From the NCBI GenBank assembly GCA_951406725.2, contig OX597822.1, positions 930,001-994,000 on the forward strand: DNA of 64,000 nt, in the 5' to 3' direction. The notes under the pieces were generated by a model that worked only from the letters and a program-made list of their open reading frames with translations, searched no databases and was not told the origin of the DNA. This DNA is from Octopus vulgaris (taxonomy: Eukaryota). This document shows positions 1,853-58,600 of the stretch, in pieces. A program made the position numbers and the translations under genes. Positions within the stretch are counted from its first letter, which is position 1, and every line of letters begins with the position of its first letter.

Positions 1853-1907
<55 letters not shown>

Positions 1908-1944
1908 CATATATATGTATGTATATATATATATACATATATGT

Positions 1945-2110
1945 TATATTAAATTGGAGATAAAACCACTATTAGGCAAATCAAACAGTGAAAATCATAA
2001 GCCAATACATAGAAAAAAAATATATATATAAAATATAAATATAAAAAATATAAAATATAAAATTCCAAATTAAAATATTTAAATTAAAGTTAAAATTTAA
2101 AAAATAAATT
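1945..2110. repeat. AT-rich repeat family (agataaaaccactattaggcaaatcaaacagtg), probable PLE terminal repeat
   Basis: Same sequence at 38612, 40545-40745 (inverted), 53180 and 53870-54055 (inverted). Confidence 0.65.
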
Positions 2111-2392
2111 TGCCGAACCGCTAAGTTACGGGGACGTAAACACACCAACACTGGTTATCAAGCGGTAGTGAAGGAGAAACACATACACGTACACACACGC
2201 ACACACACACACACACACACAAATATATACAACAGGCTAATTTTAGTTTTTGTCTACCAAATCCACTCACAGGGCTTCGGTGGGCCCTAGGCTATAGTAG
2301 AAGATACATGCCAAAGATGCCACTGAGTAGCACTGAACCCGGAACCATATCGTTAGGAAGCAAGTTTCCTACCACACAGTCACGCCAGCGCG
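2110..2392 (-). mobile_element. tRNA-derived SINE family B
   Basis: Matches copies at 11695, 27325 and 34668; A-box/B-box head on the minus strand, internal (CA)n. Confidence 0.75.
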
Positions 2393-3399
2393 ATAGATTT
2401 TGTTCGCAAAATCAGAGCGTACCCCACTCCAATTGCCATCAACGGGCCGCCAGACCCAAGTGTTCCGGCGTGATTTTGCCTCCCCAGTTGCTGATGCTGC
2501 CTCCGTTATTCCTATTTGAAACTAAGCCGGGATTTCGTTTTTTCATACACAAAAGATCTCTAACATAAAGCACGAGGATGCAATTTGGCAATATATTTTT
2601 CTGTCGATTTAATCAACCCTATATTTTTCTAGTACTTATTTTATCGCCTGTGAAAGAATAAAAAGGAAAAGTTGTTCACTGCGGGTTTTGACCTCGGAAT
2701 ATAAAGAAACGCAAAGCATTGTTTTGCGACGACCTACCAATGCTGTTACCCATCGGCCAATTTGTAGTTGCATTATATAAATGACATTGCTTTTAACGCA
2801 AATTTTGCCCCAATCGACCTTCCGTATATATAATTATTGCTTGGCTGATAAAATAAACAATAGCTAACGGAATAAAAGAAATTTTTTGTTGTATTTATAT
2901 GTATTTATTTTATAATGATATCACGGAAAATGTTCAGCAGGGAATTAACATTGAAACAGCGCAATCCTACCATGTGTTAAGACATTTGTATCAATTGGCA
3001 AAATCGCTTCGAATAAGCATATTTAAATACTGACAAAGAGGACAGTTGGGATTATCAGCAATTACTGTGGTAATTCCCCCAAAATCCTCTACAAATCTGT
3101 TAACCATTTGTCCAGCTCAAACTGGAATGTTCTGCTCATCCGTTTCTAGAATACTAAAATGAAAATAAGGAGCTTGTATTTGAATGGAATCAGAGGCCAT
3201 GAAAAAGAAAGAATTAAACTAGGAGACAGGGAGATTTTCATTTCTCGCATAAATCGTTCGGTCCAGGTTAACTGAAAAATAAAATGAAATGAAATAAATG
3301 AATGAATAAAAACAAAAGGAAAGAAGGAAGGAGGATATGATCCATTCATTATATGGCACATAATTTGGAAGTGTTTCTATTAAAAAAAAAATTAGCAGA

Positions 3400-4230
3400 T
3401 ATTTCGGTTTCTTATAGCAAATTACCGTATCAATTTTGCTAGAGGTTGAGGAAAATGGTGAGAAGAGTCAGTTCCAATGAATTAATTAGGTGTATTCATT
3501 ACCAGAATTGATCGAAAAATTACTTCGAGTAGAATTTGAACTTTCGGCAATAAATATTTATTTTACGGATTTTAATATCGTTAAGAGTATTTTGTTCATA
3601 TATTCATCTTATAAATATTGTTCGTGAAACCAACACTGGTAAAATAGTACATTTGTTTGTGCGTGGAACAAAAATTCTTCCTGTTCTTTAAGTTTTGAGT
3701 TCATATACTGCCGAGATCAACTTTTCCCTTCATTCTTTAGGTGTCGATAAAATAAATTCCAGTTAAGTAAAGAGGTCAGTCTAATCGTCTGGTTCCCTCT
3801 CTCCAAAATACCAGGCCTTGTGCTTCTATTATAGAAAAAGGGAATAATATCTGTAAAAACAACGCTGGAGAAATAGCACAATCGTAAGAGTGTGCAACAA
3901 AATTTATTTCAGCACTTTACGCTGTGAGTTCAAATTCCGTCTGGACTAAATTTCTTTACCTTTCATTCACCCAGGGCTGATAAAATACATTTCCAATCAA
4001 GTAATAGGGTCGATGGTATCGACTGATTCCCTCATTCCAAAATCCTTCGTCTTCTATCAAAGTTAGAATTCATTTTTAGCATAACAGAATCATTAGTTCA
4101 AATCCCATCAAAGTCAAATTTGCCTTTCAATTCTCCAGAGTCGATACAACAAACAAGTAGTTTAATAATGAGATCGATGGTAACCACTGGTCTCTCCCCA
4201 CAGATTTTTTAGAACTTTTGCACAAATCTG
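3400..4230 (+). mobile_element. head-to-tail cluster of degenerate tRNA-derived SINE family A copies
   Basis: Repeated gagttcaaat (B box) ...cctttcatcc..gtcgataaaata core at about 200-bp spacing. Confidence 0.6.
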
Positions 4231-4269
4231 TGCGGCGGGCATGTCACTTGATAAGATTTTAAAATCAAG

Positions 4270-5067
4270 CATCCATCTCATTTTTAAGTACTGTCACTGG
4301 AAAAGTTAAATTTCAAGAATAGTCCTTTCTCTCATCTGTGAAGATGGTGCGGACCGAAGAGTGGAGTTTTTCGAGTGGAACTTGGCATGATATGTAGAAG
4401 TTTTACACTTTCCAACAAAGACTGTCTGGAGTGATGAGCCTGCATTTAAATCAAACGCCACAGTCGCTGTGAATCTGCGTATTACAGAGGAACACCATGT
4501 TAATTTACCTAAAGTAGAGTACAGTAGAGTGCAGTTTTTCAACAAAATGTTGATACTGGCGTTACAGTAACTGGTTATATGTATTTGAAGATGGTGCGAT
4601 AATCTGTCATATCAAGCATTCAAAAGGATTTTCAAGATGTGCAGTTTCATTTCCGGTAAGATGAGCACCTCCACCCTATCATAGTAATGTAAAAGCCCAC
4701 TTTCTTGAGATTTTACGAAATAGGTGGACTGAGAGTGGAGATTCAGTTGAATACCCTCTGTGTTTACCGGACCTCAGACCACTAGACTTATTCCAACTGG
4801 AGATATTTAAAAAATAAAGTTTACAATACAAAACAAGCAACAATCGAATTAACGGCAGCGATTGAACGAGAATACATACAAATACCGAACGAAATGTTTC
4901 TTCATGTTTAAGATTCAGTTGCTTCGCGCTTTCAGCAGTTTCTGGACAAAAACGGTTACCAGTTTCAAAACCTGTAGATTCTATCAAATTTTGAAAATGA
5001 GTTGTATTTAAAAAAACACTGACTTCATAGTTAATGATTGCACGTGTACATTTTTGGAACACCTTGT
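4270..5067 (+). mobile_element. Tc1/mariner-superfamily transposase fossil, 3' part
   Basis: VEYP..LPDLRPLDLF.W.YLKNKVY-like motif near 4745-4825; terminal tttttggaacaccttg-TA TIR end. Confidence 0.65.
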
Positions 5068-5265
5068 ATGTATGTATGTATGTATGTATGTATGTATGTA
5101 TGTATGTATGTATGTATGTATGTATGTATGTATGTATGTATGTATGTATGTATGTATGTATGTATGTATGTATGTATGTATGTATGTATGTATGTATGTA
5201 TGTATGTATGTATGTATGTATGTATGTACGTACGTACATACATACATACATACATACATACATAC
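5066..5265. repeat. (TATG)n/(TACA)n microsatellite
   Basis: Direct inspection. Confidence 0.95.
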
Positions 5266-5363
5266 AAACGTAAGTTACGGAAGTTGCAAAAATGTAACTA
5301 CATGTGGGCTGTTGGCGATTTTTTCCTCCTTCTTTCTTTTCTTTTGAACTTTCCTGTATCTCC

Positions 5364-5400
5364 TGTTTCCGAAGAAGAGCTTTGCTCGAAACCTAAAACA
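5364..5400 (+). ncRNA. minimal hammerhead ribozyme variant (U4C core)
   Basis: tgttt-CCGAAGA-a-gagc ttt gctc-GAAA-cc-TA-aaaca; stems I and II pair, stem III collapsed. Confidence 0.55.
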
Positions 5401-5521
5401 ACCACCCTTTCCTTCTCTGAGCGTCTTATTAATACTTTGCATGTGCTACGTCCCCGCATTTATTTTTCTTGTCCTTTTCTCCGTTTTTTAATCGTATATA
5501 TATATATACACATACATACAT

Positions 5522-5568
<47 letters not shown>

Positions 5569-5594
5569 TTATCTATCTATCTATATATATATAT

Positions 5595-5679
<85 letters not shown>

Positions 5680-5688
5680 CATAAATAC

Positions 5689-5741
<53 letters not shown>

Positions 5742-5785
5742 ACGTTTCTAAATATCTGAGAGAGATATAAACAGTAGTGGTACGA

Positions 5786-6105
5786 TAGAGTAGTTATGTA
5801 CCGTCAACTTGATGTGACAGTCCCATGAAGGGAATCACACCTCCACCCCCACCCAGCTAAGCCTGCACCCAAAGACTAGTTTCTGAGTCTTTGCTCGTCA
5901 TCAGTCTGGAGTAGCATGGCCTGCTAGTTGGAGATGCTTGTCTAGCCTTTGTAGTGGAGGTATTTGTCTCCCCCTTGTAAACATAAGGATACAGGAAATG
6001 TGTCAAGGCCGATAAGAAGCGTTGATGTTTCCTAGGGTTAAATAGCAGTGGTGTGATTCCCTTCATAGGACTGTCATATTAAGTTGACGGTATACAAATA
6101 CTCTA
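5786..6105 (-). mobile_element. PLE-type remnant with about 55-bp inverted repeats
   Basis: 5786-5841 is the imperfect reverse complement of 6050-6105; a hammerhead motif lies inside. Confidence 0.65.
5868..5910 (-). ncRNA. minimal type I hammerhead ribozyme motif
   Basis: Minus strand tccaga-CTGATGA-c gag caaaga ctc a-GAAA-ctag-TC-tttggg; palindromic stem III ACTAGT, GUC cleavage triplet. Confidence 0.65.
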
Positions 6106-6329
6106 TATATATATAATTTTTTGTTTAATAGTGACAAATATGTCTCGAATTATGGTGTAACGTCCGTAACTCACGTCTCGTTTTCGTATAACTATGACTG
6201 TATTTCCTCATACTTTTGTATCTCCTTTTATCTAACATGTTGCTGAATGTATAACCTGACCCAGGTTGCAAGCAAAAGAAATTATCATCATTGCCATTTA
6301 TACATATATTTCATGCCCTTTTCTTTTAC

Positions 6330-7550
6330 CCTTTCGATTTTCTATGTAAACTCCCAAACGTTATGCTTACTTTAGTAAAAGTCCGCAACATCCATCGTCC
6401 TGATAGCAAATACAAGGAATTATTCTGAGTTCAAAACAAACCGAAATAAAAATTGCCTTTCAACTCTCCGGGGTTGGTAAATTACGACTAATGTATTAGA
6501 CAAGTACTGAGTAGGGGAAGGAGCGATGTAATCGGTTAACCCCTTCTCAACACGGCTGACCTGGTGTTAAACTAAAAACACTTTAAGTGAGATGATTTGT
6601 TAGAATCGTTAGATCGTCAGACAAAATGCCTAGTGGTATTTGAGTACAGATCCCTCCGTTATCCACTTTATCTTTCATCCCCTCGCCACCGGTCTCTATA
6701 AACTAATAAAGAGCCATTCAAGTGCCGGGGTCAAGGGGAAGAAATAATCACTTCTCTCAAAATTGCTGGTCTTGTGCCTAAATCAGAAACTATGTAAGGG
6801 CAACGAATTGGTAAGATCTGCCAGGGTGTCGAACAAAATATCTTGGTATATTTCGTCCGATACATGTCGTTCCGAGTTCGAATCCCGCTTTGTATCCTTC
6901 CGGGGTAGATAAAGTAAAATACTAGTCAGTTGGTATAAATTTACCTCTACCCGCCCACCAAATGAAAAATAAATAAATAAAGGGCATGTGTCTAAAATAA
7001 GAAACAATTGGCGCGCTTGCAGAATCGTTGGGGCGTCGGGTAAAATGCCTCGCGACATTTGTTAAGTATCTTTACGTTCTGACTACAAGTGCCGCGAAGA
7101 TCAATATTGAATTTCATCCTTTTGGGGTCGATAATTTAAAGTACTGGAGTGCTACTATTGGGATCGATGGTATCGATTAGCCCACTCCCCTAAAATAGGC
7201 GACCTTGAGCTCAAAATGGAGCCTTTATATTTCAGGGTCGATAAAATAAGTCCTTGTTGAGTTTACCCCCCACCCCGTAATTGCTGGCCTTGTGCCAAAA
7301 TCTGAAAACATTATTACTATCAGAACAGAAGGCGCGGGTAGGGAGTATCGTTAACACATCGGACCAAATGCTTGGCGGCATTTCTCTTGTATTTACGTTC
7401 TGAGTTCAAATTCTGCTGAGATCAATTTTGCCCTTTTTTCTTTCGTGGTCAATAGAATAAGTACCAGTCGAGCACAGTGATCTTTGCAATCGACTTACCC
7501 TCGTCTCCAAGGTTTAAAGCCTTGTGCCTATAACAGAAAGTATTATTATT
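6330..7550 (+). mobile_element. tandem cluster of SINE family A copies
   Basis: About 6 same-orientation degenerate copies with agaatcgtt head, gagttc B box, ggtcgataaa-agtac core and ggccttgtgcc tail. Confidence 0.65.
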
Positions 7551-7838
7551 ACTATTAGAATTACAACAGTCACAGCAATAACTGGCCGCAAATTAACACT
7601 AACAGGATAATTATAATGAATTTCTTAATTTTTTTTTTGCAAAATCCTTCTCCAACGTATCAGAGGACCTTTCGTCAACCCTAGATTTTCTTTGCAACAC
7701 CATATTTTTCACCCTATTCACGGAAGTACATTTATTGTCAGACTCCTTTCCTTCAATTTGCCATATTTCCTGTCTTCACCTGACATCGTGATAGTTCCAC
7801 AACAATCGTTCTCCGCCATTGTGTGTGTGTTTGTGTAC

Positions 7839-7873
<35 letters not shown>

Positions 7874-7932
7874 CATGTATATATATATATATATATATGT
7901 ATGTATACATGTATATATATATATATACATGT

Positions 7933-7988
<56 letters not shown>

Positions 7989-8896
7989 GTATATATATAT
8001 ATAATTAGTGTTCACTCGAAAATTTGATTTCGAGTGATCTTTCGTTATTTTCCCCTCTATGCATGCGTGAATTGCTTTTCAGCTTACATTGTCTGGGAGA
8101 CTCTTCTTATAGTAGGGGAAATAGCTAAATTCTTTGGCTGCTATTTCTAAATGTTCGGTATGTGGTAAAGCAAATTTTTTGCTGAATCCCTAATTATATA
8201 AAGTAATGTTGAAGTTTACCGTAAATGGTCCTTTTACATACTGAACACTATTGGTAAAATTATTAATTACTAATTGATTAATTAGTTTTACCCTTTATTA
8301 TTATTGACAATATATATATGTATGTATGTATACGTACATGCGTGCATGTATGCATACATACATATATACATACATACATACATACATTAACTATTTGTTA
8401 TTTTATTGATTCGTGAACATATTGGGTAGCGTAGGATGCTTTTTTGACATCTTTATACTCTAATCTTAGCTGACCCCGTCATACGCACATACGCCCACAC
8501 ACACACACGCACACACACACACACACACACACATGCATACGAACACAATCACACGCAAAACATATGCGTGCACTTCTGTCTGCACCTACAATCTCTCTTC
8601 TTCACTCTCTCTCCCCTCAACACACACAAACACAAACACACTTCCTCTCCGTTTCCTTCTCGTCCCGTTCGTGTCTCTGTATGTCTTGGCGTACATTTCG
8701 CTTATCTCTTTCGTCTCTCCTCTTCTTTCATTGCCGCGACGGAGAAAGAGTCGAAGACAGAAGCACTTCACTGGCTCTCTCTGTTTTCTTCTTCTTCTTC
8801 TTCTTCTTCTTCTTCTCCTCCTCCTTCTTCTTCTCCCCCCTCCTCCCCTCCCCTTCTTCTTCTTCTTCTTCTTCTTCTTCCTCTCTCTGCCTGCCT

Positions 8897-9187: not shown

Positions 9188-10367
9188 CCGATCATGGCTA
9201 CAGTTCAGTGACTTAAACCTGTGAAAGGATAAGACAATATTTCTCTGTCTGATTCTCTCCCTCCCTCCATTCCCCCCTTTCTTTCTCTTTATTACTACGA
9301 CACACTCTCTCTTTGTCACTATGACGCATTCTCTGTTTCTCCTTTATACCTTTACACTCTCCCTCTCCCTCTAATTCATGATGTAAGCAACTCTTACCTT
9401 TCCCCTTGCACCCTTCTTTTCTTCCTACCCTCTTTCTTCCCCTCACTCACTCTTTCTCCCTCTCTCTCTATTCTCTTTCACTCAGCTCCTCGTCTTTTTA
9501 CTCGCTCATTATATTTTACCCTCCCCTTTCTTGTTGTCTTTCCTTGTTCTCTCTTTCTGTCTCCTCACACTTTTCTCTCTTACCACTTTCCTCCTACCAC
9601 CTATCACCCGAACCTATCTTTTACTGATTGTTTTTTTTTACGTTATCTTTTCTATTTTCTGTTCTGTTTTTATTGTAAAAATTATTCTATTCATTTGAAG
9701 ATAATCAAATTTCCAGTGGGCTTCGTTGTGTCGCGTGGAAGTGTCCATGATTTATCACTTCCGATTCATGATTAGGGGATTGTGGGTCCGACGACAAATT
9801 GCATGGCTAATTCAAACTAAATAAGTCACAACAACACGCATACTTCATCTCCGACGACAATACCGACCTTTAAACTATGTAGCCATCCATCCATCCAACC
9901 AGCCGTCCAGCCATCCAGGCATCCAGTAATACCACCATCCAACAAACCAGCCAACCAGCCTGCCTGTCCAGCCTGTCCAGCCGGACAGGCTTTCATTTAG
10001 CAAAGGCACTAACTATTCCGCCAACCAGCTAAACGAACAACGAATCCAAGTCTCTATGTGGTTGTTCGTTCTGCTAGAAATAGTAACCTAATCTGTACTC
10101 CCCATCCGATCACCGTCTAAGAAAAGGAGAAAGGTAATGTTGGATTAATGTAGCACTGTGTTTATTGTACCAAGGGAGGAGTAAAAATGATTCTGGTTGG
10201 ACTGTCATCATAGGAAAGCTCGATCTTGATGACTTAAGACTAAGCAACAACAATATCAACCAGCTATCCGTGCACTACTTTGCCAGGTAGTCAGGCGTCC
10301 CATCATTCAGCCAAATATCCTGCCACCTACCAAGTCTGTCAACTCTTCAGATAGCTTTCTCATATTG

Positions 10368-10859
10368 GTCAGCCAGTAAGGATATGCATACGATTTGGTC
10401 ATCAAATCTAAATAGAGATTTCAAACTTAAAATCTTCAAAGCCACAGTCGAACCAATTCTACTATATGGCTCAGAAACCCGGACGTTATCAAAGAAGCTT
10501 GAGAGGCGGTTGGATGGAACTTACACCCGCTTCCTTATGAGAGCTCAAAATCTCTCGTGGAAGCATCATCCAACCAAAGTACAAATATATGGGAAATTAC
10601 CACCTGCATCATCTCTTGTGAAAGGGAGAAGAGTCCAGTTTGCTGGACATTGTTGTAGAGCTGAAAACGAGGTAATTTCTACTCTTCTCCTCTGGAAGCC
10701 ATCTGCTCGCGATACCAGAGGGCGCACACTCTCCTATCCTGATGTGATCTCCAGGGATACAGGCATCCAGCAACAGGACCTCCGTAATGCTATGATGGAC
10801 CGTGAGGTCTGGCGTAAATTCCATTGTCTCGACCACGGTCGAACAATGAATGAATGAAA
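10368..10859 (+). mobile_element. 5'-truncated RTE-type LINE 3' end
   Basis: ORF 10384-10857 has KLKIFKATVEPILLYGSET and RRVQFAGHC motifs; (ATGA)n tail; target-site duplication ttctcatattg at 10357-10367 and 10860-10870. Confidence 0.8.
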
Positions 10860-11694: not shown

Positions 11695-11896
11695 CTTTTA
11701 CTTGTTTCAGTCATTTGACTGCGGCCATGCTGGAGCACCGCCTTTAGTCGAGCAACTCGACCCCGGGACTTATTCTTTTTATAAGCCCAGTACTTATTCT
11801 ATCGCTCTCTTTTTGCCGAACCGCTAAGTGACGGGGACGTAAACACACCAGCATCGGTTGTCAAGCAATGCTAGGGGAACAAACACAGACACACAA

Positions 11897-11935
<39 letters not shown>

Positions 11936-12076
11936 CGACAGGCTTCTTTCAGTTTCCGTCTACCAAATCCACTCACAAAGCATTGGTCGGCCCGGGACTA
12001 TAGCAGAAGACACTTGCCCAAGATTCCACGCAGTGGGACTGAACCCGGAACCATGTGGTTGGTTAGCAAGCTACTT
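11695..12076 (-). mobile_element. SINE family B, 3' portion (host of the ORF1-only array)
   Basis: Aligns with the uninterrupted copy at 27325-27715 up to ggttagcaagctactt; remainder found at 18761-18800. Confidence 0.85.
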
Positions 12077-14319
12077 TATTTCAAAACATTTGCCATAAAG
12101 GCAGTACACAGATTAAGTTAGCTTTGCGGGCTGGACGAGGACATTAATGAGGTGAATGATAATGAAAGAAAGATGATAAGGATGGGAGAAGACAGAAAGC
12201 GCCCGCCGACTTTTGCTTCTCTAAAACATTGTTCTTTTTAAAAAAGATTAACACAAAACGAGGTATTAAACCTCTTACAATTTTTCCAATTTTGGGCTTA
12301 GCAGTCCATTATTAATACAAAACGAGGTATTAATCCTCTTACAATTTTTCAATTTTTGGACTTAAGTCCATTACTAATAATACATATCGTCCTCGAAATA
12401 GCTTGTGCCCGCGCCCTCCACCATCAACCACGCCTCCCTCAGAACGTAGTCAAATTCCGAGTTCGCGTCGCCCGGGACCAAGTTATAGTCTTCATTGAGC
12501 TCATTTAGCCCTAGCGTCACGTCGAACGCCACGGCCTCCACAGCTACCTGCGGAGGCCATTCGGGGTCCTGTGTGAAGGCTAAAGGTGCTCCCTTGTAGT
12601 GCTCTTCCATCACTTTTTCAATTTCTCCTCCTCTATAGAAGAGGACCAATACATTCAGTTCTTTCGTTGGCGGCACAGTTTCCGCCAACGGTATTCCTTC
12701 TCTTGTCGGTGGCACAACCCCAACCGACGTAGTTCCGCGACATTCCGGTGCCACACTGACAGCCGGCAACGTCCCGTTTTTCTTCCTCTTTTTCTTTTTT
12801 TCCCTTTTCAACTGAGGGAGGGTGCGTCTCCTCCGTGGCTGGAAGATTCGCCCTCCTCTCCTCATCCCTATTATCCTTTGGTGAGCACCCATTGTTGCTC
12901 ACCTTCCTCTTCGGCCTCTGCTTGAGGAGTCCTCTGCTTTCTCGGCCGTTATCGTTCCCTCTTCTAGAGGGGTTTTACTTAACTGTTCCGGGATCCTATT
13001 TTGTTCCCGAGGACAGTTCTTCTTTATGTGGCCGGACTCCAAGCACCGATGACACTTAGGGGGGCGACCCTCAAGCATCACCGGGTACCTGCACCCGGCC
13101 ATTTTCAAAAAATCTGGAAAAACCAGATTGGCTGATTGGGTCCACAGGGTCAAAACTGCTTTCGAGCCAACCCAAGCAGCCGCAGGAAGAACTTTTACAT
13201 TGAGGAGCTTAGTTTCGCTGTCACCCAGACCCCGGCGGATAGTCTCCTCTATCCACTCGGGTTCTATGTCGGGTGGCAGTCCGCAGATCCAAGCTTTCAT
13301 CAATTTCTTTTTTTTGTAAGTGGGCAGAATAAGATTTCCTTACCCTCCAAGGGTTCGCTAGCAAATTTGCAAGCCTCTTCAGGGGTGTCAAACAGCAACC
13401 ACACCGTTCCATATTTGACACCCCTGGAAATGAATTTAATTGTTGGCAAATACTCCTCCAACTCCTCCTCAATTGCCGTCTTTTCGAATAGGGCGATGGT
13501 GTCAAGTGCCTTGGAGTAGGTTCTCAACACCACCGTCCTATCTTCACGGTCCTTCAACCACTTTTTGGGTGGTATGATTTCCCACTCCAAAACTTTGTTA
13601 TTTTTCATTGCCATGTTTTTTAAAAAATATATTCAAATTAGACTCAAAAGCAGGAAGAAAAAAGTTCAAAAGTCTAAATAAATTTGATAGATTTTTGAAA
13701 AAACAAAAAGGAGAAAGCACAACAGAAGGGAAGAAATTAACGGAAAGTCGCAATAAAGAAAAAACAAAAGGGGGGGGGGGTAAATGGAGTTCAAAAGAAA
13801 GTTAATAAACAGAAAAAACACAGCAAAAATATTCTGGCCTTGCGGTACTCCCGGCCTGGGTTGAACCTGGAACACCGCAACTGCAACACAACCTCCACAA
13901 AAAGGTCCGAAAGGTAATCCAATAATGGCTTATTTTTATACTTTTCTTGCGAAGTACTCTGACAAGGGAATAAATTCAACAAATCCAAACACAGCACTGG
14001 CTACCGCCAACGGTGATTTTAACAGTAACTGTATTGAATTCTGAGGATACGCCCCTCCACTGTTTTTTTTTTTTTTTTTTTTTTTTTTTCAATGAACACA
14101 AAAACGGCAGCCGCCTAGCGCAGGCGAAATTGTCTCAGAGTTGGACACAACCTACTGAAATAATAATTGGCACGCAATAAATTATGCCCAACTCACAATA
14201 AACAAAATCACTTACCTCGACAACTTTCCGTTTTTGGTCTTTTTTCTTTAGTTGGAAGGAGCTTGTTACTCACGTCCACTCTAGCTCAACAGGAAGCAAC
14301 CGACTAACTGCGCATGTGT
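12077..14319 (-). mobile_element. ORF1-only L1/Tx1-like non-LTR element, unit 1
   Basis: Bounded by target duplications 12061-12076 and 14320-14335; CCHC ORF1; short 3' UTR ending aaata; no RT. Confidence 0.8.
12374..13614 (-). pseudogene. gag-like ORF1 (RRM-like N-terminus plus zinc knuckle CHRCLESGHIKKNC), frameshifted
   Basis: ORF pieces 13614-13300, 13303-12899 and 12892-12374; homologous to units 2 and 3. Confidence 0.75.
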
Positions 14320-14335
14320 GGTTAGAAAGCTACTT

Positions 14336-16271
14336 TATTTTATATAATTTGCCACTAGGGCAGCACACAGAGTAGTAGCTACGGGCTGGACAAGGACATT
14401 AATGGATGATGGTGGTGGTGGATGAAGATGGTGATGGGAGAAGTCGAAAGCGCCCGCCGACTTTCGCTTCTCTAAAACAATGTTTCAATTCACAATGATT
14501 CAAATTACATAAAAAATGTTCAACAATTCTCCTCGTCAGGTCCCCGAAGCAAATTGTCTTGCCGCCTGCAGACAACTCTGCGACGACAAGTCGGGGCCTG
14601 CAAAGAGAAAAGTAAAATCTTTCCTTTCAAAGGTCTCTGCGACCCTTGACAAAGTATCTTCCGTTACTTTTTCCGCAGCTACCCACGGAGGCCATAACGG
14701 ACTCCTTGAGCCGACCGTGCCCTTACGTTCTCGGTCACCCAAGCCATTCAAAAATCTTTCCACCTCCTCTCCCTTGTGGTAAAGGAGGAGAAGCATCTCC
14801 TCTTCACAGGAAGGGACCTCACACTGCTCCGTCAGTGGCACACTTCCTACTGGCGGAGCCTTGTTCGCGGGTGGCACACATCCCACCCGCGGCTCCGTCG
14901 GCGACACAGAAACGTCAGTCGTCCGACCTCTCCTTTTTCTCCTCCTTCTTTTGGGGGAGACTGCTGACCCAGGGGACTCCGTCACCAGACACGGGGGATT
15001 GCTATCCCCCTCCGCCCCCTGTTGCTCGCCTGTCTCTTTCTTTTCGTGGAGGCAACCTCCTCCACGACTTCCACCGTCTCCCCCTCCAATGAGGGGGCGG
15101 CGGGCGCCTTTTCCCCTTTCTGCTCCGGGGCACCACCACGGCCCTCGGGACAATTCTTCCTGATATGTCCGGGCTTCAGGCACAGGTGACACTTGGGGAG
15201 GCGACCCTCGAGTATCACCGGGTACCTGTGCCCAGCCATTCTCAGGAAGTCCGGGAATTTCATTTCTCCCACGGCCACCGGTGTCCACAGGGTCAAAGTT
15301 GCCTTTTACCCCTCCCAGGCGACCGCGGGAGCCATTTTCACACTCAGTAGTCTGGGTCCGCTATCCCCCAGGCCTCGCCGGATGGTCTTCTCGATCCATT
15401 CCGCCTCCGTGCCCGGGGGCAGCCCACACACCCAGGCTCTTTTTACTTTTCTGCCACAATACGAAGGGAGGAACAAAATTTCCTCTCCCTCCAGTGGCTC
15501 GCTAGCAAATCTGCTAGCTTCCTCGGGGGTACCAAACAGCAACCACACCGTTGCAAATTTAGTCCCCCGAGAAATAAATTTTATAGTTGGCAGGTGGTCC
15601 CCCAACTCTTTCTCTATAGTATTCCTGTCGAAGAGGGCAATGGCTCCACGCGACCTAGAATAGGTTCGTAGGACCACCGTCCTCTTCTCAAGACTTTCAA
15701 TCCACCGCTTGGGTGGGACGACCTCCCATTCCAAAGCGGTGGTTTCTTTTGTTGCCATGTTTTTTTTTTAAATAAATGTATTCAGAATAAAACTAAAAAA
15801 CGAGAAGAAAAGGAAATCCGAAGAAAGTCACAATGAAAAAAGGAGAGAGTCAAATAAAGTTAAAAAGAAAGTCAAATAAAGTTAAAAAGAAAGTCAATAA
15901 CACAGCAAAATCCTTTTGGCCACTTGGTACTCCCGGCCTAAATCGAACCAGGATCGCACAACTTCCACAAAAATTGGTGTAAAATTGGTAGTTCTTCACA
16001 GCACAATACAATTCTCACAATTCGAAGACGGATACGCCCCAAAAATTTTCTCAGCGAGAAAAATATATTTGCCACATGTCGGCAGAATCAGAATTCTGAA
16101 TCCAGTAGGACTTCCTGCATGTAAAAAACAATTCTCAACAAAAACTCCCACTGGACCCAGAAAACAGAATCTTACCTTACATGGGGCTTCCAAAGTTTCA
16201 ATTCAAGACGGCTTCAAAAGCACATCTTCACTGCTTCAGTAGCAAACACAATACTGACTCGCACATGCGCA
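14336..16271 (-). mobile_element. ORF1-only L1/Tx1-like non-LTR element, unit 2
   Basis: Bounded by target duplications 14320-14335 and 16272-16286; 3' UTR shared with units 1 and 3. Confidence 0.8.
14536..15758 (-). pseudogene. gag-like ORF1 (zinc knuckle CHLCLKPGHIRKNC), frameshifted
   Basis: ORF pieces 15758-15306, 15296-14982 and the C-terminal part of 15288-14536. Confidence 0.75.
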
Positions 16272-16579
16272 GTTAGCAAGCTACTTTATTTCATTTAATT
16301 TGCCACAAGGGCAGTACACAGATAGTAGCTACGGGCTGGACATAGACATTAATGAATGATGGTGATGAAGTGAAGATGTTGATGGGAGAAGACGAAAGCG
16401 CCCGCCGACCCCCGCTTCTCTAAGACAATGTTCAATGAATACATTTAGTAAAATGTTCAAAAATGTTCAGAATGTTCAAAAATGTTCAGAATGTTCAAAT
16501 TACATTTTTGCAGAGGAGGTAATAAACCTCCTCTTCAAATGTTCAAAATGTTCAAAAAGTGTTTAACAATTCTCCCCGT

Positions 16580-17808
16580 CAGGTCCCCGAAGCAAATTGT
16601 CTTGCCGCCTGCAGACAACTCTGCGACGACAAGTCGGGGCCTGCAAAGAGAAAAGGTAAAGTGCCTTCTTTCAAAGGTCTCTGCGACCCTTGATAAGATA
16701 GCTTCCGTTACTACCTTTCCGCAGCTACCCGCGGAGGCCATAACGGATTCCTTGAGCCGACCGCGTCCTTGCGCTCTCGGTCACCCAAGCCATTCAAAAT
16801 CTTTCCACCTCCTCTCCCTTGTGGTAAGGAGGAGAAAGCAACTCCTCTTCACAGGAAGGGACCACACTGATCCGTCAGTGGCTCACTTCCTACTGGCGGA
16901 GCCTTGTCCGCGGGTGGCACACATCCCACCCGCGGCTCCGTCGGCGACACAGAAACGTCAGACGTCCGACCTCTCCTTTTTCTCCTCCTTCTTTTGGGGG
17001 AGACTGCTAACCCAGGGGACTCCGTCACCAGACACGGGGGAATGCTATCCCCCTCCGCCCCCTGAGCGTTCTTTGGTGGGCAACCGTTGTTGCTCGCCAG
17101 CCTCTTTCTTTTCGTGGAGGCAACATCCTCCGTCTCCCCCTCCAATGAGGGGACGGCGGGCACCTTTTCCTTTTCATGTTCCGGGGCGGCACCACGGCCC
17201 CGGGACACTTCTTCTTAATATGTCCAGGCTCCGAGCACCGGTGACACTTGGGGGCGCGTCCCTCAAGCATCACCGGATACTGGACCCGGCCATCTTCAGG
17301 AAGTCCGGAAAAACCAGACTCTTGGCCGACTGGGTCCACAGAGTCAAAGTGGCCTTTGACCCTTCCCAGTTAGCCGCAGGCTGCATTTTAACGTTGAGGA
17401 TCTTGGCGTCCCTGTCACGCCAGACCCCGGCGGATGGAAGTCTTCCATCCACTCGGGTTCAAAGCCGGGCGGCAGGCCACAGACCCATAAACGTAACAAT
17501 TTTTCCCCCCTGTAACTGGGGAGAAACAGAATTTCATTGCCCTCAATGGGCTGGCTTGCAAATTTGCAAGCTGCTTCAGCGGAGTCAAATAGCAACCATA
17601 CCGTTGCGTATTTGACTCCCCGTTGAATATGTTTAACGGCTGGCATATAGTCTGCCAGCTCGTTCTCAATGGTGTCTCTCGGAAAAACCATTATGGTGTC
17701 GAGTGACTTTGAATATGTCCTCAGCACCACGGTTCTTTCCTCGAGTTCGTGCAAATATTTTTTGGGAGGTGTTAATTCCCACACAGTGAATTTCTTTGCC
17801 TGTGCCAT
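16580..17808 (-). pseudogene. gag-like ORF1 (zinc knuckle CHRCSEPGHIKKKC), multiply frameshifted
   Basis: ORF pieces 17808-17344, 17452-17270, 17339-17025, 17208-16849 and 16741-16535; 3' boundary approximate. Confidence 0.7.
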
Positions 17809-18124
17809 AACGTAAAATACAACAGTTCAAAATGATAAACTAAAATTAGACACAGAAAGGAGAATAAAAATGCAACAGAAGGGAAGAAATAAAATTAAAA
17901 ATGGCAGTTCAAAAAAGTTTTTAACAAATAAATAATAGACAGAGAAAGAGAGTTCAAATTCAGGCAAAGGAATTCAGTTTTTTTTTTTTTTCCACTTCTT
18001 CGGCCAGAATTGTAATCCAGTGCCAAATGCATTGGTAGAACCCTTGGTAAATAATCCTTGGTAATCCGTGGACAACACAACGACAATTTCAACAATAATT
18101 TTTCCAGACGGACTATGCCGCTTC

Positions 18125-18718
18125 AAAATTACAATTTCTTTTCACTCGACACAGGCAGAAAAATTATATCCGGAGTAAAGTGGAGCCTTATTATTTGCTA
18201 AAAAATATTAAATGCTAAAAAACATTCATGCAAGTAATAAAACTTCACTAAACTCGCAAAAACATAAAACGCCTGCCCGTAGTCGATTCGAACGTTCAAC
18301 AATTCATGTTGAAACAACGCAACATCAATACAATTTTCCTTCCACTCGACACAGGCAGAAAAATTATATCTGGAGCAAAGTGGAGCCTCATTATTTGCTA
18401 AAAAATATTTAATGCTAAAAAACATTAATGCAAGTAATAAAACTTCACTTCGCTCACAAAAATACAAAATTCCTACCTTTAGTCGATTCGAACGTTCAAT
18501 ATTTCACGTTGAAACAACGCGACATCAATACAATTTTCTTTCCACTCGACACAGGCAGAAAAATTATATCTGGAGCAGAGTGGAGCCTTATTATTTGCTA
18601 AAAAATATTTAATGCTAAAAAACATTAATGCAAGTAATAAAGCTTCACTTCGCTCGCAAAAATACAAAATTCCTACCTTTAGTCGAGTCGAAAGTTCAAC
18701 AATTCACGTTGAAACACG
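18125..18718. repeat. 200-bp tandem repeat, about 3 copies, in the 5' UTR of unit 3
   Basis: cactcgacacaggcagaaaaattatatc recurs at 18143, 18343 and 18543. Confidence 0.9.
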
Positions 18719-18760
18719 TGGCATCTGGAGCAGCAAAAAAACACGTCTGAACAGTTCAGT

Positions 18761-18800
18761 GGTTAGCGAGCTACTTACCACACAGCCACTCCTGCGCCTA
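18761..18800 (-). mobile_element. SINE family B 5' head (A box), separated from 11695-12076
   Basis: Minus strand aggcgcaggagtggctgtgtggtaagtagctcgctaacc matches the head of 34668. Confidence 0.85.
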
Positions 18801-46854: not shown

Positions 46855-49149
46855 TGCACCATTGTGCGAGTAGTTTACTGTACGTAATAGGAGCTCGGTC
46901 GTGCGAATTTTTGTCGTGACGTAGGAGCGGAAATCTGCAGTACGAGCGAGTTTCATACAAACGACCGCTACTCGGCTCTGAGTTCGCGCCCGCTCTCCAA
47001 ACAGGTACGGTCTCCGCTCGCTCAGTTCACGTGTTTATCTCGTTGTGGTAGCAACCTTGTTGTGTTTTCCAAGTGCTTTTGCTTAGTTTGGGGCATTTTT
47101 TGCTATCATTTTATAATAATTAGTTGTGTTAGCTATGGGTCCTAAGAAGGTTAGTCCAAAGGATAGTGCTGAGAAGAAGAAAAAGCTGATTGCGATAGAA
47201 TTGAAGAAGGAAAACACTGATAAACATGAGAGGAGTGCGTGTAGTGGACATAGCACGTTAATACAAACGAAGTACATCGACGATTTGGACCATCCTAAAG
47301 AAAAAGGTCGAGACCAAGGCGGTTACAACAGCAACTCACATCTGTCCACGAAAATGATGGAAAAATTACTTCCCTTGTGGATCAACGAGAAGCAACACGC
47401 AGGGGATATGATTACGGAGATCATCTTCTGTGAGAAAGCATGAGCGCTGTATAGAGATTACCTGAAGCAGAACCCTGGAACATCGATGGAGGAGACATTA
47501 GCAGACGCATTTAAATCCAGTTGCAGCTGGTTTGATAATTTCAAGAAGAGGACTGGTGTTCATAGCATCGTCAGATATGGAGAAGCAGCGGGTTCTGACA
47601 CGAAGGCAGTTGAAGATTTCGTGAGTGAATTCCGTCAGCTCATCGCAGCCGAGGTGGGTACATCGCACAAACCGGTATTCAACTGTGGTGAAACTGGTCT
47701 ATTGTTTTTGAAAAAAATGCCGAGAGAAACATATATAATTTCAGAGGAGAAGAAAATGCCAAGTCATAAAACCATGAATGATGTGCCAATGCAAGTCAGT
47801 CGAGACTTGAAGATTAAGCCGCTCTTAGCCTACCATTCCGAAAATCCACGAGCGTTCAAGTCGCACAAAATCCTGAAGGAGAAGCTGCAGGTAATGTGGA
47901 TGGCAAACGTTAAAGCCTGGGTCAACAGGCAATTCTTCTCCAAGTGGGTCAACCTTGTCTTCGGACCAGTAGTGAAAAAGTACCTTCTGGAGAACAATCT
48001 TCCTCTCAACACCCTCCTCATCCTCGACAATGCTCCTGCTCACCCACCTAACCTCGAAGATGATATCCTGGTCGAATTTAAATTCATAAAAGTTCTGTAT
48101 CTTTCACACAGCACCACCCCTATCTTGTATCCCATGGACCAATAGGTGATTCATAATTTTAAGTAACTGTACACCGAATACCTGTTTTGTCGGTACTTTG
48201 AAGTCACCAAAAATACAAATGTAATCCTTCGTGAGTTTTGGAAGGAGCACTACAACGTTGTAAACTAACTGAAAATCATCGATATGGCCGGGCAGGATGT
48301 AATGAGGAGATCGCTGAATTCTGCGTAGAAGAAGCTGTGGCCTGACTGCGTATCTGAAAGAGACTTCAAAGGGTTTGAGTTTGAGACACATGTATTTGAG
48401 GAGATGGTATCTCTTGGCAAGTCCATGGGCATCGAGGTTGATGATGGGTATATTAACGATCTCGTCGAGGAAAACTCAGAAGAGGTGATGAGAGATGAAC
48501 TCCTGCAGTTTCACGAGCAGCAGTATTTGGATGCATTGGAGGATAGTATAGCAGAGAAGGCTAGCAGTATTAGTGTTGGCAAAGTGGCAGTATGTTTCTG
48601 AATTTGTAGAAAAATATCATCTTGCAAAAGTAGCCACAGGTCGTGCAGCTGCTTTATTGAAATGACTTTGCTCTCGTGCATTTTCGTAACATTTTGAAAG
48701 GCAGGAAAAAACTGACTTCTCTTGATATGTTTCTAATGAAACGACCCACAAGAATAAAAAGTGAAGATAGGGTTCCAAAAAGCCTAAATTAAGCGGAGAG
48801 AGAAAACCCCAGAAATTGTTCTTCCTGAAGTTTTAATGGAGGAGAATCTCCTTCCAAACAGTAATCCGCCTCCTCGCTCGATCGTCTTCATCGCTCACAA
48901 ATCGTCCCATCTTTAAGGTTAATAAAATAAGTTTATATATTTCTGTTGCATTCTCTTTCGTTAGAATTGTCATTTTACTTGTAACTACACTTTTTTTGTT
49001 TTAAAACGCATAAAAAATTACTTTTGAGTGGTTTTAGTGGGCTGGAACGGATAAATTATATTTTAATTAATGTCAATGGGGAACATGGATTTGTAAAACG
49101 AGTAAAAAGTAAAACGTAAGATTTAAACTCATAGTGCGAGGTATTACTG
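46855..49149 (+). mobile_element. Tigger/pogo DNA transposon with decayed TIGD1-like transposase (about 47135-48865)
   Basis: MGPKKVS start, HTH CENP-B-like FKSSCSWFDNFKKR, DDE_1 motifs VFNCGETGL, LLILDNAPAHP and PMDQ; right TIR gaggtattactg-TA; left boundary approximate. Confidence 0.85.
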
Positions 49150-56644: not shown

Positions 56645-56727
<83 letters not shown>

Positions 56728-56728
56728 C

Positions 56729-58600
56729 AGAAAATATAAACATCAACTATGGAATTTTTCAAGGTGACTCACTTTCACCTTTAATATTCTGCATAGCCCT
56801 AATACTCCTTACAAGTGAATTAAACAGAACAGGGTATGGGTATAAAATTGCCAATAAAAAAATAAGCCATCTATTTTATATGGATGACTTAAAACTCTAT
56901 AGTAAAGACGATAATGAACTTGAAGTCCTATTGCGCACTGTGAAAGCATTCAGCGATGACATCGGGATGGAGTGTGGACTTGAGAAGTGTGCCAAGGCCA
57001 CTTTCCAGAAAGGGAAAGTGAAGACCACAAATTCAGTCGTGTTAGATGTTGACACGGTCATAAGAGAGCTTGAGCAAGAACAAACATACAAATATTTAGG
57101 GATAAATGAAGGCTCTGGTATTCAGCATGCAAGCATGAAAGAGAAGATCAGGAAGGAATGTTATAGGAGAGTTCGTGCAGTCCTGAAATCTGAACTAAAT
57201 GCACGTAACAAGGTGTTAGCTATAAATTCCTTAGCAGTTCCAGTTGTTACTTATAGCTACAATGTGTTGAAATGGAATATGAGTGAAGTAAAGAATATAG
57301 ATAGGAAAATACACAAGCTGCTGAGTTGTAATAGGATGCACCACCCAAAGGCAGACGTAGATCGCCTTTACCTTCTCAGAGCCCAAGGAGGTCGAGGCCT
57401 GATCCAATTTGAACTAGCTTACAAAACAACCACAATTGGACTGGCCAAATATCTCGAAATAACGAATGACTGGATGCTAAAGCACGTGGAAAATCACGAG
57501 AGACGAAAGAAGCTTCATTCTATCATAAAGGAAAGCAAAAGATTTGCTATTGATCTCGTGCAGGATACCCAAACTGAACAACCCGAGGGAAGTACGGCAA
57601 CTATTGTTGCAAAGAAGGTAAAAATAATGGCAACGAAAAAAGCGCACGAGCAATTGGCTGATAGGTGGGAGGAGAAACCTCTGCACGGCAAATATGTGGC
57701 CCGCAGCAAACAAGCTGATGTTGACCAGAAGCAAACCCATCAGTGGCTACGGAGCTCAGGGCTAAAAGCAGAGAGCGAAGGTTTCATCCTGGCTGCTCAA
57801 GGTCAAAGCCTATTAACCCGGAACTACCAGGCCAATGTGATGAAAAATGGAGCAGACCCCAAATGCCGATTCTGCAACGACATGATTGAAACAGTGGACC
57901 ACCTATTCTCTGGATGTAAAGTCTTAGCACCAGGGGAGTATAAATTAAGACATGACAGAGTTGGCCAATATCTACACTGGCTAATTAGTCGGCATTACAA
58001 TATCAAAACTGCCGACAAGTGGTATAATCACCACCCTGAGGCTGTAACTGAAGGAGAAAATGTAACCATTCTGTGGGACTTTCCAGTACATACAGACCGA
58101 ACCATCAAGGCCAATAAACCAGATATTGTTGTGAAAGACCAAAACAATAAAGTTTGCTTATTGATCGACATGAGCATCCCCTGTGATCATAATATCTCAG
58201 CGAAAGAGTTTGACAAGCTCAGAAAATATAAAGACCTACTCATTGAAATTGAGAAAATGTGGCATCTCAAGGCGGTTACAATACCAGTGATCGTAGGAGC
58301 ACTAGGAATGATCAAGAAGGGAACCGAAAATTATATGAGAATGATCCCTGGCTTACCATCCCTGCAAGAAGTGCAAAAGATTGTCTTAACTGGTACATCA
58401 CACGTATTGAGAAGAGCATTATCGATGTGAGAACTGTTGCTGCTCATGTATTTTAACTTAACTTAAAAAAAAATTTAAAAAATGAACGAACTATTGAGTT
58501 TGGTGTAATGGCCTACCAATGTATACTATGAGTTTCTTTGCCCTAGGAGTCGGGAAGACACCCGGCAAGAAATGGAAGCAAATTTGAAAGAAGAAAAAAA
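56729..58600 (+). mobile_element. 5'-truncated Dong/R4-clade LINE, subfamily B
   Basis: Starts in RT (GIFQGDSLSPL, FYMDDLKLY); uninterrupted to the stop at 58430; flanked by (AAT)n. Confidence 0.9.
56880..58430 (+). CDS. partial reverse transcriptase, CCHC knuckle and restriction-like endonuclease (frame open from about 56729, no native start)
   Basis: YMDD, YKYLGI, CRFCNDMIETVDHLFSGC, RHD, NKPDIVV..LIDMSIP, K..KY. Confidence 0.75.
   Translation: MDDLKLYSKDDNELEVLLRTVKAFSDDIGMECGLEKCAKATFQKGKVKTTNSVVLDVDTVIRELEQEQTYKYLGINEGSGIQHASMKEKIRKECYRRVRAVLKSELNARNKVLAINSLAVPVVTYSYNVLKWNMSEVKNIDRKIHKLLSCNRMHHPKADVDRLYLLRAQGGRGLIQFELAYKTTTIGLAKYLEITNDWMLKHVENHERRKKLHSIIKESKRFAIDLVQDTQTEQPEGSTATIVAKKVKIMATKKAHEQLADRWEEKPLHGKYVARSKQADVDQKQTHQWLRSSGLKAESEGFILAAQGQSLLTRNYQANVMKNGADPKCRFCNDMIETVDHLFSGCKVLAPGEYKLRHDRVGQYLHWLISRHYNIKTADKWYNHHPEAVTEGENVTILWDFPVHTDRTIKANKPDIVVKDQNNKVCLLIDMSIPCDHNISAKEFDKLRKYKDLLIEIEKMWHLKAVTIPVIVGALGMIKKGTENYMRMIPGLPSLQEVQKIVLTGTSHVLRRALSM

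Follow-up and report, generated by a model that had tools for sequence, protein, structure and literature searches.

How do three diverged elements, none of which encodes a reverse transcriptase (RT) or an endonuclease, come to stand one behind the other at a single nucleotide of a short interspersed nuclear element (SINE)? This question is raised by a 64,000-nucleotide stretch of the Octopus vulgaris genome (assembly GCA_951406725.2, contig OX597822.1, positions 930,001 to 994,000 of the forward strand), referred to below as the window, in which a SINE is interrupted by three units, U1, U2 and U3, each with one open reading frame (ORF1) only. The analysis makes it probable that such ORF1-only copies are placed by long interspersed nuclear elements (LINEs) of the L1 group acting as helpers, and that a half of the target carried by the element itself rebuilds the site with each full-length insertion.

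Three ORF1-only units in a split SINE

The window SINE lies on the minus strand and is split into 18777-18800 and 11695-12076, with all three units in the same orientation and following one another in the 5' to 3' order U3, U2 and U1. Its 5' head (18777-18800) ends in an A-box-like motif that immediately precedes the insertion point and the rest of the split SINE (11695-12060) carries a B-box-like motif, the insertion site lying between these two motifs, which were read by eye; for the head, ARAGORN reported 0 tRNA genes in 4 loci and Rfam gave no tRNA match. The same 16-mer is present at every junction with 0-1 mismatches, at 12061-12076 as the SINE's own copy, that is the downstream half of the original target, and at 14320-14335, 16271-16286 and 18761-18776 as the 5' end of U1, U2 and U3, respectively. 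The U3 copy has C at position 9, a variant also found in unlinked unit-3-type copies. A fifth match in the window (19672, 3 mismatches) belongs to another SINE head; the chance expectation in the window is 0.40 matches, and five were reached in 0 of 100 shuffles.

Counted with their own 5' 16-mer, U1 (12077-14319), U2 (14336-16270) and U3 (16287-18760) measure 2259, 1951 and 2490 nt, and each contains one ORF1 with a CX2CX4HX4C knuckle and a 3' untranslated region (UTR) of 200-297 nt. In this assembly, ORF1 is frameshifted in all three window copies (12374-13614 in U1, 14536-15758 in U2, 16579-17808 in U3). Siblings of these units retain open frames of 393-414 amino acids, such as the 414-residue U1 counterpart at locus L158 and those of about 400 residues for U3 at L061 and L063. 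The 5' UTR of U3 includes three 200-bp tandem monomers (18135-18734), whose copy number differs among copies and which may serve as a promoter. Close to the 3' end of each unit, a hairpin with a 4-bp stem and a 5-nt loop (12091-12103 in U1, with counterparts at 14350-14362 in U2 and 16301-16313 in U3) is held in common with the autonomous families described below. Pairwise DNA identity among the units amounts to 70-80% in ORF1 and to 78-87% in the final 150 nt, and their 5' UTRs are mostly unalignable with one another. Using the 1133-residue ORF2 of a partner family as query, no trace of ORF2 was detected in the array (best E 0.27), and the units show no terminal repeats of the long terminal repeat (LTR) type apart from the 16-mer. 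A gag-only element of LTR type was considered and rejected, given the lack of long terminal repeats, the fixed 3' ends and the variable 5' truncation.

An earlier note on this DNA, made from the sequence alone, had described a split SINE with three units in its sense, the 16-mer at all four junctions, and units of 1.9-2.5 kb with one knuckle ORF, a short 3' UTR and no RT or endonuclease. All of this holds, with the third junction placed at 16271 rather than 16272, and the divergence of the ORF1s and 5' UTRs agrees with its view that the array is not a simple tandem duplication.

One nucleotide-exact target across the genome

When the 3' end of U3 was used as query, 40 of 1531 candidates were scored and 30 loci fetched, and all U3-type 3' ends were found on the motif (30/30, including the window and three near-identical repeats), one of them on a motif reduced to its first 6-7 bases. 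A 29-mer from the U1 3' end, picked without flank, has 213 exact matches in the genome, the first 30 of which adjoin the SINE body in 30/30 cases. Altogether, 60/60 ORF1-only-type 3' ends examined meet the 16-mer in a SINE head, and hence the flanks of genomic copies are not random, and the proposal made beforehand, of a strict target located in an abundant SINE between its A- and B-box-like motifs, is supported. For two common SINE variants, exact filled junctions number 197 + 260 = 457 and exact empty heads 28,847 + 28,609 = 57,456, an exact-match occupancy of about 0.8%. The 3' end is of ORF1-only type at 19 and of autonomous type at 11 of 30 filled sites sampled in genome order. At their 3' end the ORF1-only copies have a short A/T-rich terminus that is fixed and abuts the target without a poly(A) tail; such a tail is present at the 3' end of the ORF1-only HAL1 elements. 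The postulated non-autonomous, ORF1-only nature of the family is likewise upheld by the absence of an ORF2 match and by the size of U1-type copies, 40/40 of which measure 1.9-2.3 kb.

In the literature, no account was found of this family, of the combination of features or of a SINE-targeted Tx1 element; Repbase and Dfam, which were outside the scope, may hold the family. A repeat study of O. vulgaris reports 13 recently active L1-Tx1 families, the word 'target' being absent from the part of its text at hand, and its library may hold these families (PMC13282606).

Origin of the 5' 16-mer

In genome order, U1-type copies are full length and start with the motif in 40/40 cases, 37/40 of them being solo. 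At solo full-length loci, the 5' and 3' motifs are identical over the first 14 nt in 29/70. Informative cases are those in which the local target differs from the usual variant of the subfamily; among 33 such solo cases, 22 have a 5' copy matching the subfamily, 5 one matching the local target and 6 one matching neither. In one subfamily, a 15-nt variant occupies the 5' end of 10/14 copies and occurs in 0/56 empty SINE heads. The same pattern of an element-borne 5' motif is observed in the autonomous families B1 and B2, and in four U3-type copies the target base preceding the motif is replaced by A. Truncated copies (n = 24, duplications counted by hand, two complex junctions omitted) have 0-2 nt duplicated or a small deletion in 13 cases and 4-16 nt duplicated in 11, and thus no true target-site duplication (TSD) of fixed length separates the units. 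Mostly, the 5' 16-mer comes with the element and does not represent a TSD. Since the 5' copy tracks the subfamily and truncated copies often have merely 0-2 nt duplicated, the RNA likely starts with the target half and rebuilds the target. The earlier proposal that each insertion regenerates the target through its TSD is therefore not sustained.

Some unusual copies were also encountered. In two short, internally deleted ones (290 nt at 8057-8346 of L064, and 106 nt in L112), the 5' motif is retained with the initial bases of the 5' UTR, as is the 3' end; L064 is part of a 12.5-kb repeat that occurs three times. In L027, the 5' junction of a truncated copy bears an inverted copy of the upstream SINE head, such as snap-back synthesis would produce. 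In L159 (minus strand, 1870-8000), the 16-mer marks the end of a non-targeted autonomous element, in front of which stand a further motif copy and about 500 bp of an ORF1-only 5' UTR, representing either UTR capture or a long duplication.

The ORF1 protein is under purifying selection

Pfam recognized only zf-CCHC in ORF1, with no match to ZCCHC3-type domains. The structure predicted from 8 sequences (pLDDT 73) contains two RRM-like domains ahead of the CCHC knuckle. Its best VIA Z score is 8.0, in the range typical of a common fold, and L1 ORF1p is absent among the fold matches listed for the model; a feature match in the Atlas to the ZCCHC3 RBD1/RBD2 cluster (0.91, rank 7) makes a ZCCHC3-like nature a lead. 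Gag-like ORF1 proteins with RRM-type domains and a CCHC knuckle, resembling ZCCHC3, are associated with the Tx1 clade, and mammalian L1 ORF1 is composed of a coiled coil, an RRM and a C-terminal domain. The nearest homologue is an uncharacterised Octopus sinensis protein (66% identity), with other named matches from Octopus and Argonauta.

From 16 of 28 open ORFs, a 200-residue core was used for comparison and tree building; in this core, the ORF1-only subfamilies share 63-99% identity with one another, 22-27% with ORF1 of B1 and B2, and 25-31% with that of one non-targeted family. They constitute a branch of their own, not sister to B1/B2, on a long branch with an unsure root position. Between subfamilies, the ratio of nonsynonymous to synonymous substitution rates (dN/dS) amounts to 0.14-0.25 with the NG86 method and 0.2-0.43 with YN00; one very close pair reaches 0.6. 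Hence ORF1 is shown to be under purifying selection and, taken together with its separate branch, this means that the ORF1-only lineage is old and its ORF1 maintained. With only about 25% identity to ORF1 of the helpers, the family is not their recent deletion derivative, a test that covers the helpers examined and a partial survey of other autonomous families. The U3-type ORF is covered by contigs of three runs presumed to be RNA, from which neither expression nor a start site was deduced. The subfamilies are mosaic, with 5' UTRs, C-terminal halves of ORF1 and 3' ends exchanged (L268, L276, L277, L279, L127 and L061).

A second ORF1-only type was observed in L160 (5760-10000, plus strand), in tandem behind a non-targeted L1-group element with the same 3' terminus; its ORF1 is open (411 amino acids, 7597-8829) and shares 34-41% identity with autonomous ORF1s and 25-29% with the family of the window units. 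It appears that passengers with ORF1 alone arose on more than one occasion in this genome.

Candidate helpers

The trail to a helper started from a truncated foreign 3' end beside an ORF1-only copy in L070, which led to family B1. As the earlier note had anticipated, autonomous partners with an apurinic/apyrimidinic-type endonuclease and RT (APE-RT) and with the same target and 3' terminus exist: three two-ORF families, B1, B2 and B3, use the SINE-head target (50/50 3' ends), with B1 on the motif in 30/30, the older B3 in 20/20 and B2 at the same nucleotide. B1 and B2 have two ORFs in 5.5-5.7 kb, and ORF1 of B3 resembles that of B2. ORF2 is open over 1133 amino acids in L142 and L149, with Exo_endo_phos (APE), RVT_1 and zf-RVT above cut-off, and its nearest solved structure is human L1 ORF2 (E 8e-66), R2 following at 8e-22. 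Among the 120 best homologues of the helper RT none bears a Tx1 or L1 label; from architecture and targeting, the helpers likely are L1-group elements of the Tx1 clade. The first 30 zf-RVT loci belong to other L1-group families, and one of them ended on the motif. The sequence that helpers and ORF1-only elements have in common is confined to the last 30-45 nt, including the 4-bp hairpin, which exhibits compensating changes (T-A to C-G in B1; GCC/GGC to GTC/GAC in older copies; duplicate loci are included in these counts). Based on such sequence features, B1-B3 are the likely helpers of the ORF1-only family, whose units would be mobilised in trans.

A proposed mechanism and its alternatives

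The scheme that we favour begins with the fixed 3' junction, which lies directly before the 16-mer in ORF1-only and autonomous families alike. The helper ORF2 would bind the common 3' hairpin and terminus, nick the bottom strand opposite the boundary between GGT and AAG, and prime reverse transcription there. True duplications range from 0 to 16 nt, and second-strand cleavage may accordingly be loose. The 5' 16-mer tracks the subfamily, and a full-length cDNA could use it to anneal to the upstream end, so that copies would be joined precisely and at full length. Sites rebuilt in this manner would be used again and, with some local duplication, give rise to arrays. The selected ORF1 may act in cis by packaging the RNA that encodes it, a behaviour reported for TRE5-A.

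Several observations weigh against this scheme. The helper assignment rests on the approximately 30-45 shared 3' bases and the common target. Five informative cases and 11 truncated copies show true 4-16 nt duplications, so that both the element and the target contribute the 5' copy. The usual variant of each subfamily was derived from the same copies that were scored, and L070, one of the 70 solo loci, is a mis-parsed two-unit site. Furthermore, re-use of rebuilt sites leaves the array frequency unexplained, and ages show no consistent gradient with the youngest unit at the 5' end, the window U1 looking youngest. Arrays are indeed far commoner than an occupancy of about 0.8% predicts: another element follows 14/30 U3-type, 17/19 U2-type, 5/30 B1 and 0/30 U1-type copies, the U3, U2 and B1 sets being best-match sets and not random samples. 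At other loci, up to 7 units of the U2 subfamily stand in a row, and in arrays of 6-7 units mixed sublineages occur together with near-identical pairs, indicating fresh insertion alongside either local duplication or the repeated use of a single donor. The nearest sampled siblings of U1, U2 and U3 are 0.15%, 1.2% and about 3% away, distances that are upper bounds and do not fix the order of insertion. Serial insertion, as suggested at the outset, is plausible, its order and timing not being fixed by these distances. Arrays may be caused by hot loci, by a preference for junction sites or by the chaining of units in one reaction. As separate observations, non-targeted L1-group elements with open ORF2 are spaced by about 5.4 kb at C2:73046133-73062761 (G000) and elsewhere, and several non-targeted L1-group 3' ends adjoin apparent 5' ends of other elements.

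Chaining in one reaction is compatible with the favoured scheme and would replace its re-use step: as the end of a finished full-length cDNA equals that of the nicked target primer, the RT would jump to another RNA and join several units. We regard it as possible, though doubtful. It would account for the enrichment of arrays, the often similarly low private divergence of adjacent U2 and U1 units and the frequent presence of B2 as 3' neighbour of ORF1-only units. However, B1 sits 5' of ORF1-only units in L142, L143 and L145, the 5'-most units of two arrays represent a younger sublineage, and some arrays join units whose nearest siblings are 2% and 10% away, which diverse donors could also cause. 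A bolder synthesis is equally tentative, in which an old, independent ORF1-only lineage is parasitic on SINE-targeted LINEs and has half of the target fixed at the 5' end of its RNA, whereby its cDNA mimics the nicked primer and one RT chains several different elements per insertion.

A little less probable, in our estimate, is repeated hitting of the few protein-bound SINE heads that are accessible, for example through tethering to the RNA polymerase III machinery. The array enrichment, the adjacency of U1-type copies to the SINE body (30/30) and the precedent of TRE5-A (PMC3159450) speak for it. However, U2-type copies mostly lie kilobases away from the B box, and 37/40 U1 copies are solo.

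It is unlikely that every 16-mer is a true fixed-length TSD into which later elements insert, as in ancestral R1. The motif is indeed found at every junction, five informative solos and some truncated copies reproduce the local variant (L300, L105, L184), and the variant is uniform inside each of two U2 arrays. However, 22/33 informative solos follow the subfamily and 13/24 truncated copies have 0-2 nt duplicated, which largely refutes TSDs as the sole source.

Local tandem duplication or unequal exchange following one insertion is very improbable as the main origin of arrays. Near-identical pairs (0.1%), arranged as ABAB and AA in two U2 arrays, are in its favour; however, it is excluded for the window, whose units are only 70-80% alike, array members are often nearer to copies on other chromosomes than to their neighbours, and arrays mix ORF1-only and autonomous families, so that it covers only part of the long U2 arrays. 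Finally, amplification of a SINE-plus-element composite with a hitch-hiking flank and no targeting, which would explain SINE halves around nearly all copies, can be dismissed almost entirely, since the flanking halves differ in variants locus by locus, truncated copies of varied length retain both halves (which refutes it), and several unrelated families occupy the same nucleotide.

Further open frames and significance

Besides the array, the window has open frames at 56727-58427 and 10291-10854 (both plus strand), which by eye we take to be RT fragments of other LINEs, and at 47444-48142 (plus strand), presumably a fragment of a pogo/Tigger-like transposase.

The SINE head, of which tens of thousands of copies are dispersed, adds a safe haven for nucleotide-exact LINEs, and the system comprises three levels of parasitism, with the SINE, the targeted LINE and the ORF1-only passenger. 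As the SINE targets vary in sequence, unlike homogenised rDNA, element-borne and target-borne bases at the 5' junction can be separated, which bears on how second-strand synthesis is primed. With an element-borne target copy that accompanies almost 100% full-length insertion, and with helper ORF2s that are open, this priming question becomes testable, and the system may be of interest for retrotransposon-based gene insertion.

Comparison with known systems

HAL1 is non-autonomous, encodes ORF1 only and had several origins (PMC5753468). The octopus family shares the ORF1-only coding, but has a strict target, no poly(A) and an RRM-RRM-CCHC ORF1, whose identity of about 25% to that of the likely helpers does not fit a derivation by loss of ORF2. 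TRE5-A.2 of Dictyostelium is an ORF1-only element moved in trans that needs a 3' hairpin, with cis preference of ORF1 and a tRNA-gene context (PMC3159450). It is likewise the passenger of a targeted helper; however, it represents a direct ORF2 deletion of that helper and is position-specific via TFIIIB, whereas the octopus target is nucleotide-exact.

The APE-RT elements Tx1L, Keno and Tx1-Mar target other repeats including transposons, and the non-autonomous SINEU passengers of the Tx1 clade have the same target as their partners and are often in tandem (PMC4494074). The octopus helpers are similarly APE-RT elements with a repeat target and non-autonomous passengers alongside. However, a SINE head is not among the targets named there (piggyBac, Mariner, Harbinger, LTR elements, U2 in a sense unrelated to our unit, U5, 5S, satellites and microsatellites), and SINEU passengers are non-coding while the octopus ones code for ORF1.

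Drosophila R1 arrays have one target copy between units, as do those of octopus, and in ancestral R1 arose by re-insertion, with R1A of the melanogaster group carrying target sequence at the RNA 5' end for precise joining (PMC2718515). They differ in that the TSD of R1 arrays is a true one of 14 bp and R1A carries the upstream target, whereas the octopus elements carry the downstream half, have a dispersed SINE as target and mostly lack ORF2 as array members. HeT-A, a gag-only element in head-to-tail arrays with an RT-encoding partner (PMC5537684), resembles the octopus passengers in this arrangement, but adds onto chromosome ends without an internal sequence target. Thus, every ingredient of the octopus system has a precedent, in HAL1, TRE5-A.2, HeT-A, Tx1-Mar and the R1 arrays.

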